The translations under genes and the position numbers were made by a program. A stretch of DNA of 63,909 nt, filler included, from Reclinomonas americana ATCC 50394 (Eukaryota): assembly GCA_048213135.1 (NCBI GenBank). It is 11 parts of 11 records of this genome, joined end to end, with 100 filler letters (N's around TTAATTAATTAA, not from the genome) between each part and the next. Parts side by side here need not be neighbours in the genome. Positions count along the whole stretch, not along the records: positions 1 to 8,221 come from AFZH01022086.1; 10 more parts are not named here. One strand, written 5' to 3'. Below the pieces are notes generated by a model that did no database searches, had not been told where the DNA came from, and saw only the letters and a list, made by a program, of their open reading frames with translations. Below, piece after piece: positions 196-23,319 of this stretch. The stretch's first letter is position 1, and the number at the start of each line of letters is the position of its first letter.

Positions 196-3100
196 TCACG
201 CGTGCTCGTCAGAACGCGGTGACTGCGCAAACCCAACACTTCGCCGACGGCTCGTGCCGCCAGCACTGTGATTCGATCCGGAGGATGGCATCGGCGCGAC
301 TCCGCCGTCCACATTCCCGTATCCCGACTGCTGCCGGTGGTAGGTGCCAATGTCGGGGATGGAGTGACGCGCGCCGACCACCTCCTCGATCTCTGAGTCG
401 ACGTGCTCGTCGTCGACGTGGCCGCCACCGCCACCGCGAGGCATCACACCCACTCGTCGTTCGCCAACGCTGCTGCTGGTGTCCTCGTGCTGCCGGTGCG
501 CATCTGGCTGGTGTGGCAGCCGAGCGAATTCCGCCACCGAGCCGGTAGCGTTGCGCATTACATGCATCGGTGCATTCTCGCTGATCACGTACTCGTCGCC
601 GCGTCGACGTTGCTCCTTTGGCTGCATGTAAAACTGGGGCTTTCCGCCATTGGTGCCCGGTATGCATACCACCTCGAAGTGGGAGAATCGACGGCCGCTG
701 TTGCGCGCGCTCTTGGTGAGGTCCTCCAACTCGGTCGTGTCGCGCGCCATGCGAGCGATTGCCGAGTCCTCCTCAAACTTCACCACGTCGCCACTCTGCC
801 GTCGAGATCGAAGGCTTCGTTGTGAGCCGGCGCTAGCCGGACTCATGAGGCCACCAGCGTGGCTTCCGCCAGCACCCAGTTCTGGGTCTCGTGGGGACTG
901 TGCGAACAGTCAGCGAACCCAAGGCAAGACAATTCCTCTCTTCTCTATTCATCGACACACACCTCGCCAGGTCGACTGCGTCGACTCTGCGCGGACGCCG
1001 ATCCCGGGCGTCCACTTCGGTTGGAACGAGCCGCGGCGACAATGAGCGCGCCGCTCTTTGCCGACTTTCCTGACTCCGACGGACTGAATTCTGCAGCAGC
1101 GTTGACGTCGGGAGTGGCATCGTCTTGCGTCGGTGGATCCTCCTCGGCCATCTTGGCTTCGTCGCTGATGAGATTGGTGTCCGGCACAAACTGGCTCAGA
1201 TCCTCCGGCACCGAGGAGATGTTGTTCCATCCGCCCGTGCCACGCTCGCGGAGGGCGTAGGGCAGGATTTGATACACTGCGCGAATGCGATGAAGGTGAG
1301 ACACAACGACGACAGTTTTTTTGACAAGCAGTGTGCCGCCTCACCATGAATGGCGTCGTCCAGGCCCTTCAGCATGAGTGGTCCAATGTAATTGGTGCAT
1401 GTGCCGAGGCACAGGTCTAGCGTACCGTCAGCGTTGCGAGGGATCTGGCTGAGCAATTCTTCGCTCACGTGGATCATGCCGCCAGCGGCTGTGCCAGCCA
1501 CACGCGCACCACGATTCACCATCGGCCCGTAGTAGTCGGGGCGATTGTTGGTCTGGGTGTGAGCGCACAGTAGTTAGGATCACCGAAATAAACACAGATG
1601 GTGCAAGTGTATGAATTCACTCACCTCGTCGACCTACGATTGTACCAAGAGAATCAAATTGGGGGGGGGGGGGGGGGGAAGCAGTGAGTGAGACCGATGC
1701 CGACATCGCCACACGTGCTCTCCCTCTGTCCCTCCTCACCTTGTCTTGCACCTGGCCAAAATGCAGACCCATGCGCACGCGCAGACCAGAGTAAATTGGC
1801 CCATCAGTTCCCTGCTTCACATCGCCGTGCTTGAAAGTGTACAGCACTCGGGGCCAGCGCGCCTATTCACCGCCAAGAGATGTTGGTGAGCACAAAGAAA
1901 GCAAGTGAGTGCGAGTAAACGATCATGAGCAGCGCACCTTCAACAGAGCCATTTGTGCCTCAAGCGCCCAGTTCAGCGCTGTCCGAGGCTCCTTGAAGGC
2001 AATCATGAAAGCGTCACCTGCGTGCGTGTGGCGACAAGAGCAGTCACGATCGGTGTTACTGTACTTGCTGGCACGCACACTCTCAAAGAATACTCACCCT
2101 CTGTCTTCACCTCGTAGCCGCCGTGCTCACGAATAATATTACGCATGATCTTGTGGTGGATGGTGATGCTACGGCTCATTACCGCCGGATCGGCTTCCCA
2201 CAGCGCGGTGGAACCTGCGAACGGACACAAACACACAGTCAGCCCGTATGTAGAAGCAACATTCGAGCAATCACAAGAAACCTTCCACATCGGTAAAGGC
2301 GATGACGACGCGGCCGCGCGGGGCCGAGGCCAGAGTGGCAACGTACAGGTCCTCGACATCGGCGCCGAACAGATTGGCGTCGTTGTGGGCGTCTCGCAAC
2401 GACTTGTCCGAGTACACGAAGCGCCAGAAGAACAACAAAACGTAGCTGCTCACGGCACACCAAGCGAAAATGCACAGTGCAATTGCCAGTTGGCACCCGA
2501 TCGCCTTGCCACGATCCATCTTTTCACCCGTGCCAACACCGTAAACTGAGCGTGTCAATGCGTTGCGTTGTCGCAGTGAGAGACAGTCACAATAGTATGC
2601 CACTCTTGCACGACACCACTCACTCTTGTCAACATACTCGGTGTCGTAGAAAAAGGCAGTGCACATGAGGCCAGTGAAGCCGCCAAAGAGATGCACACCG
2701 CACGCTTCGACCTGCACGAGAGGTGGAGTGTCAGTGACGAAGGCACTCCTTCGATCAAGTTGCCTCGGTGTTGTACTCACCGGATCGTCGATCTTGAGAA
2801 TGTTGGTGAGCCAAGCACCGGCCAAGTACGCCATGGCCCCAATGATGCCGGTGACGAACGCCGCCCAGGGAGCCATCATGGAGCACCCTGTTCAACGGCA
2901 AGCCAGCGGTTACATAATGCAGTGACAAGTTCGAATGAAAAACAGGCGTCTCCACCAACCTGCAGTAATGGCCACGAGGCCGGCCAGTGAACCGTTGAGG
3001 ACGGCGGTGAGGTTGATGCGCCCGACTTGCAGATAGCCGAGACCAAGAGCAGTGATGGTTGCCGACGAACCAGCAATCACAGTGTTCAGGCCGGCACGAC

Positions 3101-4863
3101 CTGTGCGGCGAAGGGTGGGTACACAAGACGTGCAGCGCGACAGCTACAATGAAGACCACTTACCAGCCACCTTCCAGATCTCGGAGCCAACAATGTAGCC
3201 AGTACTGCCGACGTTGAAGCCGAGCCAGCCGAACCAGAGCAAGAACACACCGAGTGCGGAGAGAATGATCTGGGTCTGCGGGTAGGCGATTGTGAGTACT
3301 GCGAATGGTGGGTTCGCTGATGGAGAACAGTGCGGCACACACACCTTGACCTGCGCACATTGAGAAAGATGGAGTGAGAACAAAGGAACACCAAGTGTTT
3401 CACACGGCCACGATGATGCACACGAACCCACTGGTTGCGAATGAGCTCCAACAACGTGTCTGTCACTGGCCCTTCGTCTTCATCCGTCGCGCGACTTCCC
3501 TGTGTGGTGGAGTCAGCGCACGAACCGAGTCGCGTTGTTGCAGTCTGAAGTGGCATACTCACCGACGACAGAGAGGAGGCAGCACTGCTGAGCACGTCGT
3601 CCTCGTCCATCACACTTTTCTTAAAGGTGACGCCTTCGCGTGGACCCACCATCCACGCTCCGACGAAAGCGCAAGTGCCACCGACCATGTGCACAGCACC
3701 GTCACCTGCATCACCGAGAATCGTGAGCACATGAAACATCAGAAGTGAGATGCACGGGCTCTCACACACGCACCCGCAAAGTCAAGCAAGAAGTACGGCC
3801 CAAACACTCGCTTCTCCTCCACAGTGAAGCCACTGAACATGCCGTTCGCCGACCATTCCCAGTGCACCACCACCGGGTAGAGCACGAGACAAATAACGGC
3901 GTGGAAGAACATGTAGGTCGTAAACTTGGTGCGCTCAGCCATGGCTCCCGACACAATCGTTCCTGCGCGAGACTCGCAGCGTGAGGAAAGCACACCACAA
4001 ACACAAGACGTGGCAAGTGATGCACACACGCACCAGCAGTGGTGGCAAACATGAGCCCAAACATCCACGGAAACTGCTTCTCCTCGGGGAAAGCCAGAAT
4101 CTCCTTGGTGGAGAAGCCGATAAAGGTGGAAGGCCCTTCACTGCCGGCAAACGTGGCCCCCAGAAGCCACCACATGAGGGAGCCCTGTATGCGAGAGGAA
4201 GAAGGAGAAGGAGGAGGAGGAGGAGAAGATGCGCAAAACAAGGGAAAGAGATTCAGCTTCGAAGAAACTGCCGCTTGCGGTGAAAAGGAGAGTCTCGAAC
4301 CGACATGAAATCCGTCGTCTGCGACAAACACAGGAGCATCGCTGACAGTGAGCACATGCACGTGGTGTGTGTGTGTGTGTGTATTATGTGAGACAGAGAG
4401 AGAGCAAAGTGACGCACATTTTTCAGCACAATGGACAACACACTGCCTTTGACACTGGCCGCCTACTCAACGGTCACATCAATGCAATCACATGACAAGT
4501 GAGAGGGTCAGTCGTCTTCAACAAACACAGGCACGCACACACGTGCTCACACACCTCGACGAGCAAGAAGCCTGCTTGCATGATAAACACCTGTGTGAGA
4601 GTGTGCGCGCAAAATGAGCAGCTGAGCGGTTTCACATTAGTGTCGACACTCTAGAAGAGAAACGCACCAGCGCCGAGCAAAGCAAGAGCCACTGTGACGC
4701 ACACGTGTGAGTGAGCGAGCGAGTGAGTGAGTGAGTGAGTGAGTGTGAATGACGCAACAGCCGAGTTCACCGCGATCTCGACAATCGCTGTTCTGTCAGT
4801 AAGACTCCCCAGTGCCATCTGCAGCTCGTCGGTCACCGACGGTACCATTGCTGCGTCGTCCAT
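196..4863 (-). CDS. Ammonium transporter (Amt/Mep family) fused to a class III adenylate cyclase, with a long disordered C-terminal tail; multi-exon
   Basis: The spliced reading gives MDDAAM...AVNSA|WLLLCSAL|VFIMQAGFLLVE|AASVKGSVLSIVLKN|TTDFMS|GSLMWW...FGLMFATTA|GTIVSGAMAER...HWEWS...LDFA|GDGAVHMVGG...LLWFGWLGFNVGS...LNGSLAGLVAITAG...KIDDP|VEACGVHLFGG, which are Amt signature motifs. The reading continues without a stop into APRGRVVIAFTDVE|GSTALWE...YEVKTE|GDAFMIAF...GLRVRMGLHFG...DYYGPMVNRGARV...LKG. All joins examined use GT-AG sites. The C-terminus might extend past 196 through a possible donor there. Confidence 0.92.
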
Positions 4864-6029
4864 GATGGCCAGCAACACGTGTCAACACTCTTTCGAAACG
4901 CGCACTTGTGATTATTGACTCTCCTTCTCTCCTCACTCCCAGTGAAAAATATTGCGCGCGAAAAACCAACGGCCGGGAAACTCTTTTGTGGTGACCACAA
5001 CAACGCACAAAAACGCAACGGGAGAAGTTTTCGAGGGCACTAACGCTTGTTGACTCTCTCCCTCTCTTGCGCGTCCGCACAGTCGCTCGAAAAAGTGAGT
5101 GGCGACCCGAACAAAATAATCATACGAGGTAAAGGGAGAGTCGATGTGGTGATGAGTGGTTTTGGAAAAACGGCAAGTTGAAGAAGAGGAGCAAAGCAGG
5201 TGAGAGTGGAGTCGTTGTTTGTGATGAAGAGATCTAGACAACGGCTCACCGTGCCTTCATCACAGCATGCGCATTCTCGACTGTTCGGTGGCGACACGCT
5301 GGTGCTGCGCATGCGCTGGTGGACAAGGTTGACTACAGTTGGCAAGCAAGCCGTGCTTGTGCATCGGCGACAGCATCCCTTCTTCACACACTCCATGCGG
5401 ATCTGCAGCTCAAGATCATGCGTGGTCTGCGCAGTGAGCGGCCTGTACCATGTCTGCTGCTGCCGCGGCCGCCAACATCGACCGCGACAGCATCTGTCTC
5501 TGCCTTGGCCTCACGATCGAGTGCTCTCGAGCGCGCGCGGTCGCTGCGCTGTGGAGCTCGAGGTGGAGAGCGGCCTCTGTGCTGTCGCCAAAATCGACAG
5601 CAGGATATCGATCCACGACAGCATGCGCATCGATATCCGTCTCTGCCTCGACACCGACTCAGGCACCACGTGCACCTTCCTCTACACTCCACTGTCGAGA
5701 GGTGCTCTCGGCCTGTTCTCGGTGGTGGAGCAAGCGGCCGCGGCCTCTGCTGATCTTGACTCCACTGCTCGGTGAAGGTGGCTGGTGTTCGTGTTGACGA
5801 CTTCTCGTCGTTGCCGACTGCTGGTTTGTTGGCCAGCGAGCAGTTGCCACTCGCCACAGCGGTTCTCTGTGTTGTTGTCTCCTGTTGTCCCACCTGCTCG
5901 TGCTGCTGTGGTTGCTGATCCAAACACGCTCCTCGTCGCGTGCACAGCTGTCCGCTCTAATGTGCACGCACGTGATGGGCTGCTCTCGGACACTCTCAGA
6001 AGTTGGGTGTCAGTGTGGTGGTGCGTGTC

Positions 6030-6064
<35 letters not shown>

Positions 6065-7207
6065 GTCAGGCTCCGTTGGCGGTCGGACGGTGGTGTTGTG
6101 TTTCCCGTTGACTCTCGCTTGTTGCCTGCTGCGATTACTCGATGTCACACTTCCACGTGTGTGCGTCTCAGTGCGGACTGGAAGGCCTTGCGGCAGTGTG
6201 CGTTTGTCGACTCTCTGCAGAAGGCTGCTGCTGGATGCCACGACGTGGTGTCCGCGCAGGGCAACGGCATGAACGAGAAGGATCGATATCCGGAGCAGCG
6301 GTACCTGTACAAGATGTGGACCTCCGCCATTCCCAACCAAGGCGGCATGGTCTTCAACGGCAACCCTGGCTACCTTGCCTCGCTTTGCTGGGACACTTGC
6401 TCGACAGCAGCGAAAGCAAAGGGTGTGGAGAGAGAGCGAGAGAGTGAAGGAGAGAGATCGCAATTGTACTGTATGTGAAAGAGAGAGAGAGAGAGAGCGA
6501 CTGTGCATGTGGAGCCTGGCGATGAAGGTGTCTCCTTATCTCACCACATGCAGGCGCGTATTACTGCGCAGGAGACAAACACACTCTCTCTGCTGAATGA
6601 ATATCGACTTATTGCGCGATCAGTTTTCAAAAAGCGAATTCGAACAAATCGTTTCAACAACTCTCCTCGTCACATACATAGCGTCATGTGCAACGTGGAC
6701 ACGTGCAATTGTGTTGGTGCGAGCCGACTGCAAGCAAACCCTTGACCTCTCGAGCACGTGCGATGCGAGATTCGTTGGCATCCGGATATAGTGCGAAGGC
6801 GCCGATATCGAACGTCGCTGCGATGTGCAGCATAGACCTGCTGCGATGAGGTGCACGACAGCGTACAGCGCTCGATATTTGCGCATGCAGCAGAGCGGCA
6901 CAGCCGAACCCCTCCCTGCGCGTGCGCACATCTATATGCACGCGGCGTTTTAATCGTTTTGCACAAAAGACCAATACTTTCCATACGCATTGTTCATTCT
7001 CTTTTTCTCATCCGCGCGTGAGCAAAGACAACGACCTCAATCTCTCGAGTCGAGCACCCTCCTCCTCGAGTTTCCCTCCGACACCGACAATCGAGTGGCC
7101 GTGATTGGTGTGATTGGTCATACTACTGCGCAGTGAGTGCGCCTTTTTCCTTTCGTGAATGTCGATCTCACACAAGCACGCAGCGTGTCTTTGGCGAACA
7201 GGAAAGC

Positions 7208-8321
7208 ATGGCACTGGAGCAAACATGTCGCACTCTACAAGGCCTTTACCAACGCCGTCCGCCCTTCTCCAGCGTTGCGCAGTCACCCCTTCCACACACA
7301 CACACACGCACTTGTCATCGTCCGTTTTTTGCAGTCTGTTTTTTTAACCCCGCGGTTCTATTTTGCGTAGCGGCCGTTACAAGACGCGGTGATGTTCGTC
7401 GCCATGCACATCAGCTTGGTGGCCACAGTCTTCTCGCCTCCAGCTCTGTCCTCCTCCACCTCCTCCTCCACCAGCAACGACATACTGCTCACGGCAGCCA
7501 CATTGTTGCCTCCTGTGGTTTGTTCGAACAACTCCGTCGTTTCTCATTCGGACGTCTTTTCACTCACAAAAACTCTCGGAAAACACAGCTGCCCCTCACT
7601 CGACTGCATGTGGCCTGGCTGTACGCGTTTGCCAGCACACTCGTCCTCTTCGCGCTTCTCTTTCGCCAGCACAAGCAGCAGCAACGACAACTTGAAAAGA
7701 CCTCGACATCGGGTGCCGGATTGCTCGAGGACTCACTTCTCGCTGTCTTCACTCGCGTTCTGGTGCGCGCTCTCTTTCTCCCCTACCTCGCAGTGTGTGC
7801 ATCTCTCTCTCTCTCTCTCTCACTGTCTCTCCGCACAGTTGTCGGTGGTGTGCGGTCCGCTGCTGTCGGCCCTCGTCCTGCTTCTCCTGCGTCCGCTCCA
7901 CTGCGATTTCTCCTCACTGACGCACCTCAGTGTCACCGATGTGACGAGTGCCTCTGCTGAGTGGAGTTGCGTGTGCACTTGACACGCACATGCACTCACT
8001 CTCTGTCTCACTCTCTCACGCACACATGCAGGATGTGATGACTCGATGAATGTGCTGTTCGGCATTGTCGGCGTTCTTCTCACCCTCGCGCTGACTGTGT
8101 TGGCCATTCTGATGCCGATGCTGTTGCGTCACATGCATGTGCACGCACTGTTGCCTCTCCCTCTCTCTCTCTCTGTCACTCTTGCATGCAATCACTCTTT
8201 CTCCTCATTTTCTTTCTCTTTNNNNNNNNNNNNNNNNNNNNNNNNNNNNNNNNNNNNNNNNNNNNTTAATTAATTAANNNNNNNNNNNNNNNNNNNNNNN
8301 NNNNNNNNNNNNNNNNNNNNN

Positions 8322-8364
<43 letters not shown>

Positions 8365-11300
8365 TCTTCTTCTCCTCCTCCTCCTCCTCCTCCTCCTCCT
8401 CCTCCTCCTCCTCCTCCTCCTCGTCCTCCTCCTCCTCCCTCCCTCCCTGCCCCTTCTCCCTCTCTTCTCCCTTCACCCTTCCACCCTTCACCCTTCCACC
8501 CTCTCTCTCTCCCCTTACCTTTCTCCCCAGCTCCACCGAGTTCCGCCCCACCTCCCGCCTGTGGAGTGCCGGACTCCTCAGTGGACGCTACCTGGCCGCC
8601 CTCAACGCGCTGCGCATCCTCCTGGCCTTGTCGCACACGTTTGTGGCACACGCACTGCCACTGGCGCACGCCATTGTGGCCATTGCCGGTGCCGGATTGC
8701 TGCTGGTGGGCTTGCTGCGGTACTTGCCGCTCTTTTCATTCGCTGGTGGGGTGGTGGCGAGCACCGCCGCAGTGGCGAGTGTCGTGGCTGGTGTCGTGGA
8801 GTGCGTGCTGGTGGCCGTCGGCGGTGGCTTGCACTGGAGTGCTCCGTTGCTGGCAGCGGTGGTGGGTGCCGGCAGTGTGGTCATTGGCGCGCTCGTGGCA
8901 GTGGTGGCGCTGCTTGCGCGGCAGGTGGCCGTTACGCGCGGGGTGGAGGCGTTTGTGAATCGACACGTGACGTCGACTCGGTCGGCAACATCGGGGTCAG
9001 TGGCCAGCTTGGTGGCCAGTATCGCGAGTCCCACGGCGCGCTACTTGGTGCGTTCGCTGCTGAAGTGTGCGTGACGACTGTGGTGACTCACGCACGATCG
9101 CACCTGCAGAGAGGCGGCGGCAGCGCAAACTCAGACGACACCGGGGTAGACAAGGAAATGCGTGCGCTGTTTCCGTACGTGTGGGCGGTGGAGCAGTGCG
9201 CTCGGTTGCCGGCGCGGAGCGTGATGAATGCGTGGGAGCGGGCGATGGATTTGTTTGAGCTTGGTGGGTCACGTGTGTGTGTGTGTGTGCATCTTTGCAT
9301 GTCCGCCCTCTCACTTTTGTGTGTGTCGGCAGGTCGGATGCACTTTGAGGGACAGGCGGCCGATCTGGTGTCTCTGCAGCACGCCGTGTACATGGCGAGT
9401 TTCAACAGCAATGTCGATGTGGCACAGGGAATTGTGGCGACGCTCGCTGCGCGGCAAGAAGTCGAGGTGTCGCTGGCGTTTGACATGCGTCGCATTGTCG
9501 TCGAGCTGACGGCGGCGTTTGAGCGCACCGCCAACTTCAAGGAGCTGTCGTATCGTCAGCGGCTGGCCGCCGTGCACCAGGAGTGGTGCCGCTGCTACGT
9601 GCAGCTTATTTCACTGTGGCGCAGGCTTGAACGAGTGGGAGTCGGTTCGTGTATGCAGAAGGGGAGGGCGGGAGGGAGAGAGAGAGAGAGAGAGGAAACT
9701 GAAAGGGAGCGAGCAAGTGCATGGATACGAAGGGAGGAAGTGGGAGTGAGGAAGGGAGACAGGACGAGAGAGCGAGTGTAAGAAGAGTGAGTGAGTGAGT
9801 GAGTGAGTGAGTCACAGTGTTGGGCGAGTGGGCGAGGAAGGCAAATCGAGAGAAAGTGATTAAGCCAGAGAGTCAATGTGTGAGTTCCTTCGTATTGACA
9901 CAAGGCTTGTATACGATGCAGATGACACGGTGCGCAACCTTCTGCTGGCGGTACAAGAGCAGGAGGCGGTTTGCGATCGCCTCTTCAAGGCTCTGCTGAT
10001 GGATAATCCCGATAGCGTCGAATTGGTTCTGTGGTACGCGCAGGTTGGTCTATGTAGAACGAGACACATCAACCTCCATGCACTTCCACTCACCCACCTT
10101 TGTGCTTGTAGTATGTGACTGAGATCAAGAACGACGAATTGCTTGGTCAGCGCATGGACATGGTGGCGGAGCAGTTGTCGACTGGAGACGGCATTTCAAT
10201 GCAGAATGCCGTCAAGGAGCGCGAATTCGGCCTGCTGGAGAGTATGGAGGTTGATACGTCTAGCCAATATGTGTGTTGTACGTGTCTGCTATTGCTGACA
10301 TGTCGTGTCCCCGCAGCACTTGCGACAGCTGCTCTTTGGCGGCAAGGACGGCGCGATTGACGACGACGACTACTTGTCATCAGCTATTGGCGCGCAGCAG
10401 AGCGATCGCTGGGCTCCTTCATCGTCGTCCGCGTCTGCGCCCACTGCCGACTCCGGCAATCGCATTCAAGCATTTACCACGCCCTTCGACACCACTGTGC
10501 AGGACGTTGTCGACAATGGTGATGGTGAGTGCATGTTCGCTTGCGTGTGTTTGTGTGTCAACGCAACTGAATGGCGCCTGCAGGAAGCGAAATTGTGTTG
10601 CCCGTCAGCACGGCGGCGGTTATCTCTCCCGATAAGCAGAAATGTTGCGTTGACGAGGGGACAGCATATGAAGCGTGTCGTATGCCACTTACCCTTGCCT
10701 GCAGCGGTCAGAATCGCCGCTGACAGCGTCAGAAATTCTCCGCCGTCTCAGCACCCACAGAAAGGCACGGCCTCGTCGATGAAGAAAAACACACAATGCG
10801 ACGAGAAGCCGGTGAAGAACACCAAGGCGGCCAAGAAACTGCTGAGTTGCGTGTGGGGTTTCCTTTGGCTTTTGAGGAACCCTGTCTGGCAAACTGAACG
10901 AGGGCGAGGGTTTGACAGGCTTCAACGATGCTCCTGCTAGCGACTGTGCCAGTCAGTCCGATCGCGGGTCGGTGGGATCGAGCAGGTACGCATGGCCAGT
11001 GTTTTACTGTCGTGCCAATACTTTCCATTTCCTGAACTCGCGTTGCACACAATCACAGCCATGCGCGCTCCACTGGCAGCTCGGCGTACACGGGTGTCAC
11101 AGCTGACAGCACCGCATCGGCCTCACTTCGACGTACGATTGTCGTGGAAAAGGTGCGAACTGTGGATTCATGTATTGAGTGGGCGGCTGTCTGATTCCAG
11201 CTCACATGCTCCTGCCGCAGAATCCCACGACCGTGCGTTCCTACTGGGTCCTGCTGATATTGACTGCGGCGTGCATCGCCACCATGGTGTACGTGTTTGC

Positions 11301-14300
11301 ACGATCCACGACTCAAGTCCATGAGTTCGCCTCTCAGCGAGAGCTGTCACTGGATTTGGCCTCTGCAAGGTCTTCATGATGTTGGCTGTGGTTCTTCCCT
11401 CTCTTCATGACGAAGGCTCATTCTCCACGCAGTGCCTACGCATCGCGAGCTTCGCTGTCGGCGATACAGCTGTGGGGCGACGTCGTGGAATCATCCGCGG
11501 TGACAGACGCGGAGGCCGCTGTGAACGCCTTACGTATCGACCTCGTCACGAATGGAACATTTGTTCGACGAGTGGTGGACGCCGCCGCCAGTCTGTGCGT
11601 ATTCTCCCCCCTCCCCTTGCACGCACAATACTAATGTCACGCTCCGCACAGCGATGATACCACTGCATCTGCGCGATTGGTGAGTATTCGCGAGGTGGAG
11701 GGCACCACTGCCACGGAGGGAGTGGTGGTTGTCTCGCAGTTGCCTGCGTTGGATGTGATTAGCAAGTTTGCGGAGTCCGTCATGGTACGTGCGAATCGAC
11801 TCGACCCGTCTTTGAGGGGTCGTATTTGCTTACACAAGTCGTGCTGCAGGATGTGGCAAACATGCCGGTGCGAGATTTGCGTGGCTCTATAAGCGTCGAT
11901 CGCGAGTCTGTGGTTTTTGCTGCCGCCAACGGCTTGGTGGTCAGCGACATTATTTTGACGATTGCCGACCAAGTGAACGTGGCGACCGAGCGCGACGCGG
12001 CATCGTTCAACGAGGAAGTGTGGACGGATTTCGCGATCAGCGTAGGGTGCGTGCTTGTCGATGTCCTTTTCGTCGTGCTTGCTCATGTGCTGACGGGAGG
12101 TGCAGACTGTGTCTGGGAATCCTGCTGGTAATCTTCCTGCCAGTGGCGTTGAGCTTGAGGCAGCGACTGCGTGAGTCGTTGCAGGCGTTCACCCTCGTTC
12201 CGAAAAAGGACATGCAATCGGTGTGCCACAAGATTCGCGACCGGTACTTGCAGTATCTGGAGATGACGCACACTGTGCGCGATGTTGCGTGCTGATTGGT
12301 GCATCGTGGCGGTGGTATGGCACAGCGCCTGACACTTCTCTGTCGTGCAGGGAATACATCCCTCCACCATTGTGACGCCCAAGTATGTGGTGACGCAATG
12401 CACCACCGTCGACTTCCAATTTCTGCGCAATCTGGTGGTGCGCGCCGCGGCGCTGGTTCTGATCGCGCTCTCGGTGACGTTGATCTTGACGTTGCGTACG
12501 CTAGTGATCAACTATCCACCCCAATCTTCCCGATAGCTTGACATCTCCGTTCTCTGTCATCCTCGCATTGCAGCCTGTGCGCATCGTCAGTGGCCACCGC
12601 CACCTCACGCAGCATGGAGATTTTCAATGATATTGAGACGCGCAATGCCATGCTGCCCGCGGTGGCCATGGCCGCCATGGAACTCACGCACCCTGTCGGA
12701 CTTGTGATGCTGGAGGAGTCCAAGGTGGTGATGAAGCGCGTTGTGTCCAAGGTTAGTTTCTGTTGTCGGGGTGTTTTTCTTTGTCCAAGATCCTCACGAC
12801 TTGTGTGAACTGCATGCCAGTTTCTCGAGCAGCAAGAGGTAATTGCCGATCTGGTGACCAACAGTGGGTGGGACGACCAGACGCAAGCGGACTTGCTGTA
12901 CACTGCTCGATGCAGCGAGGCGGAGTTATTCGTGGATACCAATCCACAGTGGGCAAAGATCGTCCGCTGTCTGCCGATTAGCGCACTGGTTAGCGATGCA
13001 TCGGCAGCAATTATGTGTGGTCCCCGTTCTGTTTGCTCACCAGCAACGCTCGTCGCCAGATGAACTCGATGATGACAGCTGCTTCGGGGCTCGCCGAACA
13101 CGTGACGAATCCGCCGAGTGCCGCCGACCTGAACGATCTGAATTTCATTCTCGCAGCGCACGAGACCCTTGTGCGCTACTTTGATGCTAGTTTGGTGGTG
13201 CGTTGTTGCTGCTGCTGCGCGTGTGCAAGGAGCTTTGATGTGTCTCGCTCACTTGCGCGCACACACACAGTCTCTGCGTCTCGGCCTGGAACGGACAATT
13301 GGACGCGCCGAATTCACCTCAATGGCGATTGTGGCGGTGGGTGTGCTCGGCACGCTGCTCTTCTCGGTGCTGTGCGTCGCCCCACTTCTCCGCGAAGTCG
13401 ATCAGCAACTGCGATTCTTCAAACGCTCGCTCCTTCAAGTGCCGACAGCCGTGGTCAACGCGGTTCCTGAGCTGCAGATGCAGCTGCTGCCTCGTTGCGT
13501 GAGTGGTGCAACTGTGGAGTTTGCACTGTGCTGACCGATGATGGTGCAGATGCGCTGCTGGCCTCGATGAAACTGAACAACCAGATGAACGAGAGCGAAT
13601 TCTATCTGCGCGAGATTCTGTCGAGTTGCGCTTCACAAGGGTTCCGCATGTGGAGCGACATGGCGACTGACTCCTCTGTTCACAGGTTGCGCTCTGGTCT
13701 TGACAAGCGAAGCGGTACGTAGCGAGGAGTGGACGATTTATTCCGTATGTGAAGCTCATTGCATGTGCAACCACAGGGCACCATCGAATTCATCAACCGG
13801 CGCTTCACGCGCTGTCTGGGTTACTCGAGTGAGAGCATTGTCGGCCTGAATATCAAGGTTAGGTGGCGCATTCGTGAGTTATGGCTGGTGGCGGCGATCT
13901 TTTCTCAGTTCAATATCGTGGCGCACACAGACGATTATTCCACCTCGGTTGCATGCCGCTCACGACGGCCACCTGGCGCGCTACATGGCGCAGCCGGTGG
14001 CCAGCCGCCGCCCACTAGCCATCACGCGTGATGCCGAGGTCAGCGTGTTCTCACATGTGAACCCCTTTTCCAAGGTTTTCTCACTCGTGCTGGCGGCGTT
14101 CAGGCATGCCACCGTGACGGCAGCATGGTCCCCGTCGCGCTGATGGTGGTCGAGTGCCATGTTGGCGAGCGACGTCTCTTTGCGGTGCAGCTTCGCGACA
14201 TTAGCGAAAAGGTGGCTGCTGTGGCCCGCGAGAAAGACCGACTGAATAAGGTGCGGATGTGGTCGTCCTTCAACTTGGCATGCGCTTGTCTCCTGACTCG

Positions 14301-17300
14301 AGTGCATGTCTTTTGTCAGTTGGCACTTGCCACCCGCACGTCACCCGAGGCGGTGGTGGTGGCGCGGGAGGATGGAGTGATGGAGCAAGTAAATGCCACG
14401 GCGGTGCGCATGTTTGGCTATGGCAGTGCCGACGAACTGCTCGGGAGGCACATTCGCGTGCTGATGCCGTCGCCGCATGCCGAGAGACATGATTCGTTGC
14501 GTTGCGAAAGGAGAGGGAGAAGAGAGGGGAGAAGAGGAGGAAGTGAGGGGGAGGGGAGAGGGAAAGGAGGGGAGAGGGAGAGAAGGGAAAGCGCATGAAG
14601 TGTCTTCCTTTTCGCTCTCTACTGTCTTTTCTTTTCGGGCTTTCTCCCACACTGCTGTCTTTGCGCGAGGCAAGGAAAGACAGCAGAGCGAGAGAAGGAA
14701 GAAGAGAGAGAGAGAGAATTCTTCTCATGCGCAAAGAGTGTAGTGTGGGAGATACACTGGAAGGAGAATGATAGCAGAGAGCGAACAAGGAAGGCATTGA
14801 GGGGGCTCTTACGGTCTATCGTTGCAATGTATTCTTGCGCACGGAAAGAAGTGCCTTCTTCCGCTCTTCTGTCATTTTCCTTCCTGTTTGATTCGCACAT
14901 TGCACGGAGAGAAGTTCCTGGTTTACCTTCCTTCTTTGGCCCTGTGCAGTCGTTTTCTATCCGGTTTATCTTCTGCACTGTTATCTTTGTGCGAGGCAAG
15001 GAAACTGATAGCAGAGCGAAATAAGGCAATGGGAAGGTTTTTTCCATGCGCAAAGAATGCAGTGTGGGGGACAGCAGAGAGCGAGAGAAGTAAGGTATGG
15101 AGGGGTTCTGCCGGTCTGCACTCTTTGCTTACGGGAAGAACTTCCTCTGTGCCTTCCCTCTCTCCCTCTGCAGTCATTTTCCTGCCTGTTTGACTCGCAT
15201 ACTGCACGGAGAGAAGTTCCTGGATTGCCTCTCTTCTTTTGCTCTCTGTCCAATCAATTTCCCGCTGCATTGTTGCACGGAAAGAACTGCCTCGGTGCCA
15301 TTCTCTTGCGCTCTCTGCTGTCTTTTCCTTCCGGTCTGCATTCTTGAATTCTCTTTCCAGCAACGGAAAGGAATTGCTTGTCAATGAGTGTCAGTGATTG
15401 TCGCTGGTGTGCTCACTGGTGATGTGCTGCAGGTATGTCGCGCGGTTTCTCTCTCAGTTGGACTCTTCAGCCGACGCTGTCAAGCCCGCGTGTTCTAAGT
15501 GCGTACCACGCGAAAACTACAATCCACAGTCTGCAGGAGCTCACCACTCCCGTGCAGAACAACAAGCTTGGAAGTGCAGGCCTTGCAGAAGAATGGCAAC
15601 CTCCTTGCTACGCGCCTGGAAGTGATGGTCGTCACCATGCGTGGACAGCGCTATTTGTGCGCAATCATGCGCTCCATTGTCGACGAAGTCAAGGTGCGCG
15701 CCGTCTACGAGGAGAAGGTTGACGAGATGAGCAACATGCTGTGTAGCTCGTCGGATGCAGTTGCGTGCAACGAGTGAGGAACCTTTTTGACTTCCATCTC
15801 TTCTCTCTGTCTGACAAGCTCGTGTGCAGATTCTGTGGACCGACGAGAATGGCGAGATTCAGTGGTGCAACACGACAGTGACACGCATGACTGGCTACTG
15901 CACCGAGGACCTGACCTCGCAGTCGCATCACGTGAATATTCTGTCGCTGTTGGAGGGCATGGTGATGCAGGAGGTGTTGAATGCCGGCATGCGCTCGGAG
16001 GGTATCGAGGTCAACGTGCGGTGCAAGACCGGCAATGTGTTGCGTGAATTTATTCTTGGCCTCGCCTTCAGGGAGAAAGTGGGCGGGCTGACATGCTGTT
16101 TTGTGGTTCGTAGGGAGCGTCTCGTGCTGTGGGCCTGCCAGACTGCTGGCGACTCGATCAGACGAGTGATGGTGCGATTGTCGATGCCCAATGTGCAGCG
16201 AGTGTCGATTCAGCAGCAGCAGGCAAAGAATGCCAGATTGTGTCAGGTGGGGAGGGCGAAGGAGAGGGAGTTGGGGAGGGGAGGGAGAGGGGGAGGGGGA
16301 GAAGGAGAGGAAAAAGGAAGGAGTGCGGGGCAAGGGAGGGAGTTTGATATAGACTGCTGAGCTCCTGTGTGGGCGATATTTCATCGCGTTGAAGTAAGGG
16401 GTAATGGTGACTGGATAAGCGCGGATGTGAAGACACTTGCAGTATCACTCTCTCCTCGCATTCCTCGTGGGTTGTGGCACGAAAGCATTGGTTTCTCTTG
16501 CAAAAACGACAGCATCAGGCCTTTGTTCTCATCGTATTCTTGTGCACGTTATCTGCCTTTGTTGGCTTCCTTTCCGCTCGTCCCGCGTTCCTGGTGGAGT
16601 CTGGATTAGAAACAGTGGGTTCCTCTTGCAGACACGCCAGCAGCAGTCATACTCGGTTCTCCTGTCTGGGGCATCTCTGTTTCTGGTGCTCCGTTGTCCT
16701 TTCGATGTCGTAGCATTCGCCGTCATCTGATCCCTTTTGTGTTCTGGTGCAGTTGCTTAGCACCATCTTCCCTGCGGCCGCAGTCGACAAGATGCGTGCA
16801 ACCTCGACTGCGCGAGCACTGGAGATGCTTGATACGGTTTGTTCTACGCATTCTTCGCCCTTGTCTTCTTCACTCCAGAGCGCGGTGCTGACTGCCGTGC
16901 ACCTTCCATCAGTCCGACGTCGGTAGCGTTGGAGGCGATGCCAGGCCGACACTGTTTGAGCACCACGCCGATGTGACGTGTGTGTTTGTCAAGATCGCGT
17001 CGGTGACGAGGAGAGGTGAGGAAGGGGAGGGGAGGGAGAGGAAGGGACAAGGGGGAAGGAGAGAGGCTGGGTGCGGTCCTCAGCTGATTCTCGGGTTTCC
17101 TCTTTCTCTTCTATGTGATACCTGCTTAAACTGACGGAGTGAGATGGAGAAGAGGCCCTCGCTGTCAAGGCCAAGATTGGGCAGTGAGAGAGAAGCTATG
17201 TGTGTGTGTGAGAGTGACAATGAGAGAAAGAGACTGAAAGAGAGGGAGAATGAGAGAGAGAGAGTAAGGAGAGACAGAGAGACGACAGCTATAGAGCCAG

Positions 17301-18640
17301 AGTGAAAAAAGGGAGGCAATAAGAGAAACAGAATTAGAGAGCGAGAGAAACGCAAGAGATGCAGAGCAGTCTGATGAAGTGGCAAATCATTATCAAAGGA
17401 TTCTGATGGGCACATGGAGAGAGAGGGGGGGTGGGGGCAACGAGAGTGAGAGAAACGCGAGAGACGCAGCGACAGTCTGCTGAAAAGGCGAAGAAGTGAG
17501 AAGCAGGATATCAAGAGAGGAGGCGACGACATGTGTATAAGAGACAACCAAGACAGCTTCTCTCTCTGTCTCTCTTCTCTCTCCCTGACTGACCTTGTGG
17601 TGCCTCCCCATGCAGATGAACCGGTGTCTCTGACGGAGCGCATTGAGGTGGTGCACGAAGTCGTCTGTGCACTCGACCGGCTCGTCTCGAAACTCGGTAT
17701 CGAGCGGGTGAAGACGATTGGTGAGTGGAGGCACTGGTGAAATCGCTGTCACTTTTTCCCTCGTGCTCACCCGATTTTGGCGACAGGATCGGCGTACCTT
17801 GCGGTGGCCGGCATGTACCTGCCGCGCCACGATCATGCGGCTGCGGTGACGGAGTTTGCACTGGACGCAAGGGGCGTCATTCGCACCACTGCTGCACGAG
17901 TTGCGTGCCGATAAGAGAGGAAGCGAGAGGGAGAGGGAAGGGGAGAGCTGATCGTCATTGGTGTCGTGCAGCGCGGGCTGGACATCAAGTTCCGGGTGGG
18001 AATCAACACGGGTCCAGTGACGTCGGGGGTGGTTTCTGATCTGATTCCAACATTTGATCTGTATGGAGGTTGGTGGCAGGGGAGGGAGAGAGGGAGAGAG
18101 GAGAAGGGGAGAGAGAGAGAAGGAAAAGGGGAGAGAGGGAGAAAGGGGAGAGAGTGAGGAAATGAGAGAGGCGAGTTTCACACGCTGCTTGCGAGTACGA
18201 GAGCACGAGTTGACGCAGTGAGCACATGCGAAGCGATAATTATTCGTGGCCGATATGGTTCGTACGTCACCATTGTTGGTGTTGGATAGTTGCAAGAGAC
18301 TTGCTGGGGATCACGTGTATTGTGATTGTTTCACCTCTCGATTGGGTGCTGTCCTATCTGTCAATAACCCTGTTGTTCACCGTCGTCTGCACTGCTTCAA
18401 CAGATTCGGTCAACATGGCGTCGCGAATGGAAAGCTCGGCCGCCTACGGGAGTGTACAGATGAGCGAGGTACGCAGCACGACAATGGTCATGAATCTTCG
18501 TCCGCTCACAGTTGCGTTCTGCGTCGCAGTCGACCTATCGAAAGACGCGTGGTCTCTTCGAGGTCGAAATGGCGAGCGTGGAGGTCAAGGGCATTGGGTT
18601 TGCCACCACCTACGTGGTGCTGCAACGCACTTCGATGTAA
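7208..18640 (+). CDS. Large TmcB-like multi-pass membrane protein with three PAS domains and a C-terminal class III cyclase-homology domain; about 30 exons
   Basis: The first exons read MALEQTCRTLQGLYQRRPPFSS|RPLQDAVMF, followed by a hydrophobic TM block (8530-9047) and a helical region (LFKALLMDNPDSVELVLWYAQ|YVTEIKND). After further TM pairs come PAS1 (GTIEFINRRF...IIPPRLHAAHDGHLARY), PAS2 (DGVMEQVNATAVRMFGY...LMPSPHAERHD) and PAS3 (TDENGEIQWCN...MTGY). The cyclase reads LLSTIFP...VKTIG|S...FRVGINTGPV...FDLYG|DSVNMASRMES...VKGIG and ends at TAA 18638-18640. One intron contains an assembly gap, and the start codon is less certain. Confidence 0.85.
8222..8321. other. Scaffold gap with an artificial six-frame stop linker (also at 20066, 24016, 28110, 29575, 35072, 39344, 50155, 51935 and 60911)
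   Basis: All ten gaps are identical 100-nt N44-TTAATTAATTAA-N44 blocks. Confidence 0.98.
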
Positions 18641-19309
18641 TACAACACTTGTACATGCTTTGCGACGTCGCCCCTCAAATGTGAGTGCATGTGTGTGAGA
18701 GAGAGAGAGATAAGAAGAGTATCTCCTGTCCAGCGAGAGACGAGGAGTGCGTTGCATTTAGGTTTCGAAGTTTCCGTGATGTCACAGTTTCTGGTGCTCA
18801 CTCAAGATGGTGACTTCCAAGCAGCTGAGTTACCTGTTTGCTGCGGGTGGGAGATTGTTTGCTCGGTTCTGGTTATGAGCCAGGTTGCCACCAGCATAGC
18901 GGAAAGCGAATGTCGCAAGATCTCCACGCAGCATCTGTCCACCACTCGGCGCAGCTGCCCGCTCTCAATGCCCATCTTCTAAAGCTTCAACGACGTCGAC
19001 GCGGCCGCGGATCCCTTCACACATCACATTGCATCAATGGGAACGAGGTTTCCTGTTGTGTTAGCCTGTGCACTCGTAATACATCGTTTACCCAAGGCAG
19101 GACACGCAAAAAGCAAAGGGTCGAGGAAACAAAAGCCTTTACGCGACGTCGTACTTGCTGTTCCTCTCACGTCCCCCTTCCCTCTCTGTCACCAGTGCGC
19201 GTGCGCCAAGACTCCGTGACTCCACACGTGACTGACACACAGTGTGTGTGTCTGTGTCTGTCTCTCAGTGAGAGAGAGTGTGTGTGAGTGAGAGTGTGTG
19301 AGAGACAAA

Positions 19310-19425
19310 ATGTCATTCAGTCAGTCGTCATCGTCTTCGTCATCGTCGGCGACCTCCAGATGCGCATCTCCTCGTTATGAGGTCGATGGAACCATTCTTG
19401 GCTCGGGTTCCTTTGGTGTTGTGAG
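19310..19425 (+). CDS. First exon of a protein kinase (Gly-rich loop); remainder probably hidden in the gap at 20066-20165
   Basis: ATG at 19310 reads [38 protein letters not shown], followed by a strong donor AG|gtgag. The GxGxFG motif is preceded by the typical Y-E-x. Confidence 0.55.
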
Positions 19426-20165
19426 GTGAGAGAGAGAGAGAGACAGACAGACATACATAGACACAAAGAGAGAGACAGACAGAGACACAGAGAAGGAGAG
19501 AGAGAGAGAGAAAGACAGAGACACACACAGAGAAGGAGAGAGCGAGAGAGAGCGAGTGAGAGTTATGTCATGACTGTGGTGCGGGTCAAGTGTGTGTGCA
19601 AGTGAGACAGAAAAGATGTGGAGATGCGGTTTTTTATTCAGGCTCTCCCTCCTCTGTCACTCACAGTCACTCACATGTTGTGACATCGAACACATGCGCT
19701 TTTTTTGCGCGCACTTGATGCGCACTGTGAGGCAAGAGAAGAGAGAGAATGGGAGGGAGTGTTCAAGAGAGAGACTCGAGCAACTTGCCTCTTTGTTGTG
19801 CATCTTGAGCGGGAAACCGGGCTCATGTGTGTCCGTATCGAGTCTCTGTACAGTGAGATACAGCGCAGCATTCATAACTTACCCTCCCTGCTTTCCTCCT
19901 CTCTTCCTCCTGCTATTCCTCTCTTTCCCTTCCCTTCTTTCTCCCTTCTCTTCGCCCTTTCTCTCCCTCTTTCCCCCTCTCTTCCCCCTTCCCTTATTTC
20001 TCCCTTCCCTTCCCCCTTCGCTTCCCCCTTCTCTTCCCCCTTCTCTTCTTTCTCCCTTCCCCCCTNNNNNNNNNNNNNNNNNNNNNNNNNNNNNNNNNNN
20101 NNNNNNNNNTTAATTAATTAANNNNNNNNNNNNNNNNNNNNNNNNNNNNNNNNNNNNNNNNNNNN

Positions 20166-22738
20166 TGGCGCCGAGGCGATTGTGCGCTTCCTGGCCACTG
20201 AGTATTACGATCTGATTGGCATGGTCAATGCCGAGGGAAAGACGGCGGCGCACATGGCGCGTGATTGCTCTGCGGTGCAGGTGGCCGAGCTGTTGGAGCG
20301 GCTTGCCGCGCAGCCGCCGCCACCACGACGACGGCGACAGGGTGCGTGTGCCTTTTGTCTCTTTTGTGAGAAAACCCACTGTGTTGCTGACTGCTGGTAC
20401 AGCTGCACCGGTGCACGTCGAGCTCTTGTTATTACTTGTCTCGTTGATGCACTCACCAGCGTTTCCATGTGCATAGGTGGTCGACGAGGCAGCGGTGGCA
20501 CGACAGCTCGCCGACAAGGACACGCTCATTGCCCAGCTTCAGCACGATGTCGCCGCCGCGCAGCAGGAGCGCGCACAGCAGCAACGTGCGTTGGAGCGAC
20601 GAGTCGAGCAGCAGCGGCAGGAGCACGAGGACATTGTGGCGCAGCTGCAGCGTGCAGTCAACGATCTGCAGCGTGCCGTCGCCGAGGGGCAGCAGAGAAA
20701 TGGCGAGCTGCAGCGAACCAACACGGAATGGCAACGAGCGCACGCTGCGGTGGAGCAGCGCAGTGCCCAGCTGCAGCGCGATGTGGAGCAGTTGACGAGG
20801 ACAGTGGAGCAGCATGCAGCCGCGCGAGAGGCACTCGAGCAGGCCCTCGGAGCGGAGCAGCAACGAACTGCCGATCTCACCAGCGAACTGACCGCCCTCC
20901 GTGGTGAGATCGCCGTCCACCACTCTCTCCCCTCACGCGAAAGAATAGCTCACTTTCCAATTCTTACAATGCAGCCTCAAAGCTCTCTCGTCTGCGTGAG
21001 TACGCGTGGGAGGACGTGGTGATGGCCACCGAGTCGTTTTGTGCTCGGTTGAAGGCCGGCGGGGGCGGTCAGGGTGAGGTGTATCTGTGCGTTCTCATCG
21101 ACGAAGATGTGGCCATCAAGCGACTGGACAGCACCGCACCTTGGGTGGACAAGTCGTACAATGCGGAGGTGCGTGGGTCTGAAAAGAGAGCATTGGGGGA
21201 AGAGACGAACTCTTTGATATCTGTCAGTTGAACACCATTGGACAACTGCGTCACCGTCGGCTTGTTCCGTTGCTCGGGTACTCTTTGCAAGCGGACGGCG
21301 ATGCTGTGCGAGAGCGATGTTTGGTGTATCGAGCCATGCGGTTCGTGGATCGGGTGTGATGAGCGCGACATCTCCATGCTGACTGCGTTCCACAGTGGCC
21401 AGGATCTGGAAGTGCGTCTGCTGCAGCGCAAACCGGGTATGCTGCCGCTGACGATGGTGGAGCGTGTGCACATTGGTCTTGGTATCGCCGAGGGAGTGTG
21501 CTTCTTGCATCAGGTGCGTGGTTGATGGAGAGGAGAGGGTGTTCTCGATTCAGTCATGTTGTGTGCAACTTTGGTCTTCTTCTGGCCCCACTGCGTCAGG
21601 CAGATACTGAGTCGAAAGGGCGCGGCCTTGCTTCTCTCTCCGTTTCTCTCTCCCCCCTTTCCTTGTTTCTCTCACCCTTGTGTTATCTTCCTGTCCTCTT
21701 CATGTCCCTTTCTCCAACACTCTTTCAGTCTCTATCTATCTCTCTCGCCTGCTCTTTGTCTGTCTCCCTCTTGCTCTCCATCTTTATCTCAAGCCTTGTG
21801 TTACTTCATTGCGCATCCAATCCGCTTCCCTCTCACTTCGAGCTCCTTCGCTTTCTCTCTTCCTCTTCGTTATTTCTGCTTTCATTCTCCATGTCTCCCT
21901 GCACTGTCCATCTCACATCAGTCCTCTCTGTTTCTCTTGTTTCTCTCTCACACACACTCACACTCGCTCTTCGCTTTCTTGCTTTCATTATCTGTCCTCG
22001 TTATCTCTCTCCTCTTGCCATCTCCTCTCTCTCATTTTTCATTCTGCTGACCATCTCCATCCCTCTTCTTTTCTCCTCCTTCCGCTCCCTCAGAACGGCG
22101 TGATCCACCGCGACCTCAAGCCACCCAACATTCTCGACAATCACTGCGAGCCGCGACTCGGCGACTTTGGCATTGCGCGCATTTTCCACCCCGACGAGGT
22201 GACCCTTGACCGCTCGGCTTTTTGCACTCTTTGCCTCTTACCCCCTGTCCCTCTTGCTGCAGACTCATCGCCGCACCGTCAATCAAGAAGGCACGCCATT
22301 CTACACTGACCCTCTCTTTGTGCAAACATGCGAGATCCGCCCCGCCATGGACATGTACGCGTTCGGCGTGATTCTCTTGCAGCTGTTGACAGGCCGCGAT
22401 GCGCGCACCGTGATTGCGCAGGCGAGAGAGTGGGAGCGCTCGATCGCCACGGTCGACGCGGTGGCGCAGGCTGACCGAGACGCGGGCGAGTGGCCGGTGA
22501 GGGTGGCGCGTGGCTTGTTGCGACTCGGAGTGCAGTTGCGTGGGGTGGGGAGGGGAGAGATGACAGGGGGATGTGGAGCTTTGGACATTGTGCTTGTTCT
22601 GCGGAGACAGCTCACTTTATGTGTGCACCCAGGTGCATGTCATTGTCTGCGGAGAGGCCGTCGTCAGAGGATGCCATGATGGTGATGCAGGAATTGCGAG
22701 AGGGCTTGGGCGGCTTGCGACGTGGTGGTGAGAGATGA
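20166..22738 (+). CDS. Ankyrin repeat + coiled coil + IRAK/Pelle/RLK-like protein kinase (5'-partial)
   Basis: The ankyrin end reads AIVRFLA...NAEGKTAAHMA...VAELL, and a Q/E/A-rich heptad exon lies at 20478-20900. The kinase exons read YAWEDVVMATESF...GGGGQGEVY...VAIKRL...AE|LNTIGQLRHRRLVPLLGYS...CLVY...RVHIGLGIAEGVCFLHQ|NGVIHRDLKPPNIL...GDFGIAR...GTPFYTDP...DMYAFGVILLQLLTG...RP. Confidence 0.85.
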
Positions 22739-23314: not shown

Positions 23315-23319
23315 GTATT

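Follow-up and report, generated by a model that had tools for sequence, protein, structure and literature searches.

The window analysed here is a stretch of 63,909 nucleotides (nt) from the genome of Reclinomonas americana ATCC 50394, with a G+C content of 50–59%. On its minus strand, at 4863..196, it carries a gene in which an ammonium transporter (Amt) module is joined to a class III adenylate cyclase in one predicted polypeptide. The encoded protein is predicted to start with an Amt/Mep domain of 11 helices, which some 32 linker residues connect to a cyclase domain of class III; a low-complexity tail of about 330 residues comes last. We lean towards the view that the gene encodes a eukaryotic one-polypeptide ammonium receptor-cyclase, in which NH4+ would set the synthesis of cyclic AMP (cAMP). 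A fusion of Amt with a class III cyclase was not found described in full-text searches of the literature, the survey of fused Amt domains by kingdom (PMC11152129, Fig. 7B and supplement) lying outside the scope of this reading. Judged from its predicted function, the Amt-cyclase would be a eukaryotic extension of the sensor Amts that is apparently new.

The two modules meet within a single exon. The first-pass annotation had placed the last Amt helix and the start of the cyclase together at about 2283-2548, and exon 12 of the present model (2545..2282, aa 379-466) is indeed one uninterrupted coding stretch, in which the last Amt helix (TM11) is followed by the linker and then by the strand that opens the cyclase domain and bears the FTD motif and Asp464. 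Since TM11 and the first cyclase strand lie within one exon, the fusion is independent of the splice calls and of the gene model as a whole. The fold predicted for exon 12 contains a helix, corresponding to TM11, at exon residues 11-43 (block pLDDT 83-91). The linker of about 32 residues runs from the end of TM11, near W419, to A453, where homology to the cyclase domains of a protein designated P0024 begins. Within the linker, L428-R429 and F438-G439-A440-D441 resemble the conserved motif that follows TM11 in ordinary Amts, although 1–2 columns out of register in a MAFFT alignment. In plant AMT1 and Mep2 the C-terminal region of the Amt docks on the cytoplasmic face and controls activity, and we infer that the linker is such an Amt C-terminal regulatory region.

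Relatives of the junction were sought with a 206-residue read-through frame (2891..2274) among 1.84 billion representative proteins. There were 23 matches at E<=0.001, the top three of which span TM11, the linker and FTD, and the other 20 of which cover the Amt part only. The three junction relatives (P0001, 159 aa, E 1.7e-20; P0002, 79 aa, E 1.3e-12; P0003, 111 aa, E 1.3e-8) are environmental sequences from other organisms, with identities of 35-47% in this search and of 34-46% when aligned to the exon. Eleven columns are invariant in the four fusion sequences, including, in the numbering of the exon, L49-R50 and F59-G60, the L-R and F-G of the linker, as well as F-T-D. Furthermore, P0001 and P0003 give sub-threshold matches to the Pfam family Ammonium_transp (PF00909) at profile positions 313-377 and 337-396 of 399; because these matches reach 377 and 396, the linker is read as the end of the Amt family profile. 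The fusion thus recurs in at least three other divergent sources and has been kept by selection.

These observations bear on the most trivial explanation, that two neighbouring genes were wrongly joined by the assembly or by the gene modelling. The spliced model was made by hand, and nothing positive speaks for such an artefact, whereas both domains meet in one uninterrupted exon and the same junction is found on three independent contigs from other organisms. We therefore regard an artefact as hardly conceivable.

The Amt module was recognised piece by piece. Pfam scans were made on 12 contiguous open-frame pieces, with cutoffs of 23.2 bits for Ammonium_transp and 21.9 bits for Guanylate_cyc. 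Five of the 12 pieces matched Ammonium_transp, colinear at profile positions 98-154, 151-178, 185-215, 222-268 and 268-306 of 399. The scores were 46.6 bits for exon 6, 30.7 for exon 8, 36.0 for exon 9 (222-268) and 44.9 for exon 10 (268-306, a read-through piece), with the exon 7 piece below the cutoff at 19.4 bits. The N-terminal piece gave no Pfam match; thus four of the six Amt pieces lie above the cutoff, one lies below it and one is without a match. The profile positions are colinear, with the Amt pieces followed by the cyclase pieces; taken with the single open frame left by splicing, the gap pattern of the cyclase alignment and the recurring junction, this puts the pattern beyond chance. 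Three full-length Amts from the protein library can also be aligned to the Amt part over its length. A hydropathy scan flagged most of the membrane helices, not all of them, and the homology to 11-helix Amts spans the whole Amt length; by its family the module should have eleven helices and a cytoplasmic C-terminus.

The residues of the pore and of the recruitment site are all present in conserved blocks (F110/F114, W153/W155, D179, H187, W246, F249, S253 and H356), and we take their equivalents in AmtB to be F107, F215, W148, S219, D160, H168 and H318. The corresponding motifs are at 110 (FGLMFA), 152 (HWEW), 179 (DFAG), 186 (VHMVGG), 248 (GFNVGS) and 355 (VHLFGG) in the Amt module, and those of the cyclase lie at 462 (FTD), 503 (Lys), 507 (Asp), 582 (DYYG) and 588 (VNRGAR). 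Every Amt and cyclase motif quoted in the first-pass annotation was thereby recovered in the spliced protein. Its description of an Amt module that looks complete and of an intact cyclase with an ATP-type Lys/Asp pair is borne out as well.

Among solved structures, exon 6 matched at E<=0.01 only Sd-Amt1 of Shewanella denitrificans (residues 104-142, best E 2.4e-5), followed by Ks-Amt5 of Kuenenia stuttgartiensis. The matches of exon 8 were Sd-Amt1 (E 2.6e-4), then Ks-Amt5, and then Mep2 and Af-Amt1. The Amt module appears to belong to the sensor/AMT1-like subgroup. In the account given in PMC11152129, NH4+ binds Sd-Amt1 and Ks-Amt5 at two sites beside the pore, N1 and N2, and a signature Q-X6-E-X15-N-X2-D-[FT]-X54-60-T-X2-[ST] is proposed for the sensor Amts, which form cluster 2. 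All seven N1/N2 residues are present in the window protein (Q40, E47, N62, D65, F66, T120 and S123). Of these, T120 and S123 align to Thr104 and Ser107 of Sd-Amt1, which are described as N1/N2 ligands (PMC11152129).

In the cyclase part, two pieces matched Guanylate_cyc (PF00211), at profile positions 11-60 with 18.9 bits (exon 13) and 119-152 with 16.6 bits (exon 17), and two short pieces gave no Pfam match. The spliced cyclase is colinear with the four cyclase domains of P0024, with short loop gaps only and with none at an exon junction, including those of a 3-codon micro-exon. The only solved matches of exon 13 were GRESAG4.3 (E 2.5e-5) and GRESAG4.1 (E 4.3e-5) of Trypanosoma brucei. The first-pass annotation had assigned the cyclase to a fungal Cyr1/trypanosome type; the trypanosome part of this assignment is supported by exon 13, whereas the Cyr1 part is a matter of general background, in which the trypanosome type is grouped with fungal Cyr1 as class IIId.

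All six catalytic residues lie in one chain (D464, K503, D507, D582, N589 and R593). In an alignment of exon 17 with Ma1120, a match that is itself non-significant (E 0.69), D582 falls on D157, N589 on position 164 and R593 on R168. In the account of Ma1120, D157 is named as the second ATP-specifying residue, position 164 and R168 are named as the transition-state pair, and the Lys/Asp substrate pair is given as conserved in adenylate cyclases (PMC4215837). Lys503 and Asp582 indicate ATP as the substrate, and the cyclase is apparently active. The domain is predicted to be a homodimer-type class III adenylate cyclase.

How the two modules could work together may be outlined by analogy. The Amt modules would be trimeric in the membrane, as expected from the family, with the cyclase domains in the cytoplasm. 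External NH4+ would enter the pore and fill the N1/N2 side pocket formed by Q40, E47, N62, D65, F66, T120 and S123, as in Sd-Amt1 and Ks-Amt5. Filling of the pocket would shift TM11 at its cytoplasmic end, and with it the adjoining linker, and this shift would determine if two cyclase domains, taken from the three of one trimer or from neighbouring trimers, can pair. Class III cyclase active sites form only across the dimer interface. Because of this, pairing of the cyclase domains would control the output: it would build two class III active sites and so set the rate of cAMP synthesis. Activation and inhibition by NH4+ are both compatible with the sequence. The first-pass annotation had presented the combination of a trimeric Amt and a dimeric cyclase as a symmetry puzzle of this protein; the mismatch stands, but it is not special to this protein. 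It has already been discussed for Sd-Amt1, where the proposed model has two of the three transducers pairing (PMC11152129).

The C-terminal tail is disordered, and Pfam scans of its two pieces matched no family. In the part encoded by the last exon (aa 751-983) there are three R-R-x-S sites, at 782, 819 and 967, where about 0.6 would be expected by chance from the composition. R-R-x-S is the usual consensus of protein kinase A (PKA). The sites are possible feedback sites, with the reservation that, at this chance expectation in an Arg/Ser-rich tail, three of them are weak evidence.

The tail and the pore together bear on a second explanation, the main rival, which we consider less likely. Here the fusion is real, and the Amt is a working ammonium transporter that anchors, trimerises or localises a cyclase controlled in another way, or local cAMP feeds back on transport. 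The control could come from a local change in pH or bicarbonate caused by transport, from phosphorylation of the tail or from partner proteins, and a tail of 330 residues with three R-R-x-S sites could take such regulatory input. The pore has all its canonical elements (twin His, Phe gate, Trp/Ser site and Asp), plant AMT1 proteins of the same subgroup are described as transporters (PMC11152129), and channel-cyclase fusions with an ion-conducting membrane part exist (PMC9561859). A linker of about 32 residues with invariant positions in four divergent proteins, on the other hand, suggests mechanical coupling and not a passive tether. Furthermore, Ks-Amt5 has all the pore motifs as well and does not complete transport (PMC11152129).

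Several observations weigh against reading the protein as an ammonium receptor-cyclase. The N1/N2 residue set is also found in proven transporters, for example in plant AMT1, and Ks-Amt5 keeps every pore motif, yet transport is not completed (PMC11152129); because of these two facts, the sequence cannot decide between a sensor, a transporter or both. Two of the signature spacers are one residue short in the window protein, with E-X14-N in place of X15 and X53 in place of X54-60, and the E-X14-N spacer crosses small predicted exons. Both single-piece Guanylate_cyc scores are below the gathering cutoff of 21.9 bits, because the domain is split over seven exons. The linker has a predicted fold of low confidence (pLDDT <50 at exon residues 46-58), and it is without a HAMP domain or a long coiled coil as in Sd-Amt1. 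With the fusion exon as query, no relative was found among solved structures, the best match being an unrelated E1-like domain (E 0.046). The junction relatives P0001–P0003 are single-member clusters of 79-159 residues on contigs of 919-927 bp, and a full-length relative of the fusion was not found in the 1.84-billion-protein, word-indexed, ESM Atlas and metagenome searches. In yeast, Mep2 is reported to signal to PKA without a rise in cAMP (PMC5890159), so that a link from Amt to cyclase is not general.

The searches for longer relatives can be summarised as follows. Word-indexed protein searches with the 206-residue read-through piece and with cyclase exon 17 gave no longer relative, and a word-indexed search with the junction profile returned only P0024, in which Pfam did not find an Amt domain. 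A search of the ESM Atlas with the fusion exon gave no usable match. When JGI metagenomes were scanned with the junction profile, none of 599 pattern matches was confirmed, and a scan with an alignment of cyclase exon 13 and P0024 gave 147 pattern matches, three of which were confirmed. The only one of these three to match the spliced model by tblastn was rejected as a fusion, since this intronless, GC-rich cyclase has one membrane helix and lacks an Amt (L002); the other two (L003 and L004) gave no tblastn match to the spliced model at E<=0.01. A scan of prokaryote genomes found no bacterial fusion, an absence that is weakly supported as one pattern was used. Its eight pattern matches included one relative, in Runella limosa (L001), which is a false positive located in a TonB-type protein. 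No paralogue of the gene was found elsewhere in the window.

Inspection of the minus strand gave the gene structure. Stop-to-stop frames between 4881 and 196 encode pieces of an ammonium transporter and then pieces of a nucleotide cyclase. Nineteen GT-AG exons (4863..196), placed by hand on the minus-strand sequence, join to 2952 nt, that is 983 codons with a single stop at the end; the gene model has the genomic sequence as its sole basis. The introns are short, 16 of the 18 measuring 63-116 nt and the remaining two 168 and 287 nt. The frame opens only when 18 spliceosomal-type introns are removed, and the gene is for this reason eukaryotic, in agreement with the first-pass annotation, whose gene model was incomplete in other respects. 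It had ended the gene at 1340, whereas exons at 1276..963 and 897..196 complete the cyclase and add the tail of about 330 residues. In addition to these last two exons, three small ones (4462..4418, 4318..4301 and 1633..1625) had been missed. The gene is real and appears to be intact.

Exon 1 (4759..4863, minus strand as all that follow; aa 1-35) holds the start codon at 4863, the first ATG of its open frame, and encodes the extracellular N-terminus and the first half of TM1. It ends at a weak donor, GTTGCG. A second donor at 4704, also in phase, would add 18 microsatellite-encoded residues; the short form was preferred, as it keeps the usual spacing from the conserved Asp to MQ.GF. The microsatellite concerned, (GAGT)n at 4700..4745 in intron 1, continues the reading frame of exon 1, so that use of the donor at 4704 would lead to its translation. 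A (GT)n repeat is located at 4370..4385 in intron 3, and a (CTG)n run at 6030..6060, upstream of the gene.

Exon 2 (4555..4590; acceptor CAG, donor GTGTGT) has 12 codons, among them Q40 and E47, the Q-X6-E of the N1/N2 signature. Exon 3 (4418..4462, 15 codons) is predicted from intron-like sequence and covers the TM1-TM2 loop to the conserved KN with N62. Exon 4 (4301..4318), also predicted, is a 6-codon micro-exon, GT-AG and in phase, with D65 and F66 of the N-X2-D-F part. The alignment with the three full-length Amts shows that the conserved loop after TM1 is restored only if exons 3 and 4 are both included. Exon 5 (4034..4184) carries F110 and F114 and covers TM2, an extracellular loop and the first part of TM3; TM3-TM4, with T120, S123, HWEW (W153, W155) and D179, are encoded by exon 6 (3774..3962).

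Exon 7 (3563..3705), placed on the basis of Pfam and the Amt alignment, encodes TM5 with the first of the two pore histidines (H187) and leads into a long cytoplasmic loop. The 287-nt intron 7 contains a possible optional exon of 24 codons (3428..3499), which is open, in phase and bounded by GT-AG, with a codon-usage score of 0.10 per codon. It was left out of the model; the loop after TM5 is already longer than in the three full-length Amts without it. Exon 8 (3164..3275) encodes TM6 with W246, F249 and S253, exon 9 (2960..3100) TM7-TM8, exon 10 (2781..2887) TM9 up to an IDDP motif, on the basis of a Pfam match of a read-through piece and the Amt alignment, and exon 11 (2624..2711) TM10 with the second pore His (H356).

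After the fusion exon, exon 13 (2098..2214) encodes helix 1 and strand 2 of the cyclase with the ATP-specifying Lys503. Exon 14 (1938..2017), colinear with the P0024 domains, has the second metal Asp (D507) and the helix after it. Exon 15 (1740..1862) covers an insert characteristic of cyclases of this type, together with the RVRMG strand (560). Exon 16 (1625..1633) is a predicted 3-codon micro-exon, GT-AG and in phase, that restores the exact spacing from RVRMG to DYYG seen in domains 1, 2 and 4 of P0024. Exon 17 (1345..1552) carries the ATP-specifying Asp582 and the transition-state residues Asn589 and Arg593. The last cyclase strand (from aa 646) and the start of the low-complexity tail are located in exon 18 (963..1276), on the basis of the P0024 alignment; by codon usage its chosen frame scores best, at 0.14, the other two giving -0.73 and -0.47. 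The Ser/Gly/Ala/Arg-rich remainder of the tail, aa 751-983, is encoded by exon 19 (196..897; stop codon 198..196), whose chosen frame is the only one free of stops and has the best codon score, with a GC3 of 0.70 compared to 0.71 in the domain core.

With the 65-nt intron 18 retained, translation would stop six codons past 963. None of the choices made on the exon 1 donor, on the optional exon in intron 7 and on the removal of intron 18 touches the fusion. Retention of intron 12 (2271..2282 region) would give a stop two codons after exon 12, and the product would be the Amt and the linker without the cyclase; alternative splicing could in this way yield a plain transporter isoform. A run of >20 G on the plus strand (C on the coding strand) lies at 1662..1684 in the 106-nt intron 15, outside the coding sequence. 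Homopolymers of more than 20 letters are prone to errors of length in sequencing.

The gene structure also bears on a third explanation, that of a decaying or unexpressed gene or of a functionless, lineage-specific accident, which we hold to be improbable. It would fit with the failure of the searches made to find a full-length homologue, and with the several small exons and the weak donor GTTGCG that rest on manual reading. Set against this, the frame is open for 983 codons through 18 introns, every pore and catalytic residue is kept, and the junction is kept at 35-47% identity in three other sequences, which implies long purifying selection.

Elsewhere in the window, 41753..53538 on the plus strand holds eight consecutive long open frames of 344-426 aa each, all of them strong WD40 beta-propellers (PF00400, E 8e-61 to 1e-78), which represent either a single giant protein with many propellers or WD40 genes arrayed in tandem. 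In 5798..40600 and 53998..61951, 23 long open frames were tested and none had a Pfam match at E<=1e-4; any genes in these regions probably have their coding sequence interrupted by introns, like the studied gene. An open frame at 62396..63217 (plus strand) gave a sub-threshold match to a cysteine-rich conotoxin-type family (24.1 bits, cutoff 27), which most likely reflects merely a Cys-rich stretch. A scan of the window found no Rfam family and no transfer RNA.

How eukaryotic Amt/Mep proteins relay an ammonium signal is an old open question, and in Chlamydomonas a receptor specific for ammonium chemotaxis has been postulated, not identified (PMC11621555). If the protein is a receptor-cyclase as proposed, the bacterial principle of an ammonium receptor, an Amt with a fused transducer, would be extended to eukaryotes and to cAMP. 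A natural Amt-adenylate cyclase fusion would be a self-contained test system, with NH4+ or methylammonium in and cAMP out in one protein. With a linker far shorter than those of the bacterial sensors, the protein may also lend itself better to structural study of the coupling and of the break of symmetry between trimer and dimer. If the Amt is only an anchor, the gene would still be a new member of the small set of transporter-cyclase fusions. A broader speculation can be offered only tentatively: Amt-adenylate cyclases may form a conserved eukaryotic family of one-component ammonium receptors, spread over several lineages of uncultured protists. In these proteins the Amt C-terminal regulatory region would be the switch for cyclase pairing, and surface ammonium would be converted directly to cAMP, for example in chemotaxis or in decisions on nutrient state. 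By domain-fusion logic, a direct contact between Amt and cyclase might then also be the long-sought route from Mep/Amt to cAMP-PKA signalling in other eukaryotes.

Among known systems, the closest full relative of the cyclase that was found is P0024 (E 6.5e-15 to the junction profile), a protein of 1807 residues with four cyclase domains that is encoded on an ENA contig of about 1 Mb. It scores 338 bits on PF00211, and a Pfam scan found in it no Amt domain and no family besides the cyclase. In place of an Amt module, trypanosome receptor cyclases carry a large extracellular domain and just one membrane helix. The closest solved catalytic domains are those of GRESAG4.1 and GRESAG4.3 (PDB 1FX2 and 1FX4). 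The ion channel-adenylate cyclases of ciliates and Plasmodium, together with CYA18 of Chlamydomonas, resemble the window protein in that a eukaryotic membrane transport module is N-terminal to a class III cyclase (PMC9561859). They differ in that this module is described as K+ channel-like and not an Amt, and homology of the membrane parts is neither seen nor expected.

The fungal Mep2 transceptors are likewise eukaryotic members of the Amt family, are among the matches of exon 8 and are described as reporting ammonium to the PKA pathway (PMC5890159). They have no fused enzyme, and in the same account they signal without a rise in cAMP and via other proteins, by a route to PKA that is given as unknown, which agrees with the statement of the first-pass annotation that eukaryotic Mep2 signals through separate proteins. 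Mep2 is furthermore placed in another N1/N2 cluster, without these ligands (PMC11152129).

As had also been stated in that annotation, the characterised Amt sensors with fused transducers are bacterial, namely Ks-Amt5, whose transducer is a histidine kinase, and Sd-Amt1, whose transducer is a diguanylate cyclase (PMC11152129). Ks-Amt5 (PDB 6EU6; PMC5764959) is the second-best solved match of exons 6 and 8, and is a receptor rather than a transporter with all the pore motifs kept. It differs from the window protein in being bacterial and in its output, the histidine kinase of a two-component system. Sd-Amt1 (8QJ3, 8QJ4 and 8QPF) is an Amt-HAMP-GGDEF ammonium receptor (PMC11152129). It is bacterial, makes cyclic di-GMP by its GGDEF domain and is described with a linker of about 60 residues that contains HAMP and a long helix. 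The gene in the window, by contrast, is eukaryotic and has 18 introns, and its product combines a class III adenylate cyclase with a HAMP-free linker of about 32 residues, a long disordered tail and the two shorter signature spacers. Nevertheless, Sd-Amt1 is the best solved match of both exon 6 and exon 8, and all its N1/N2 ligand residues are found in the window protein. In both proteins, as far as Sd-Amt1 is described, a C-terminal transducer that makes a cyclic nucleotide would dimerise under a trimeric sensor.

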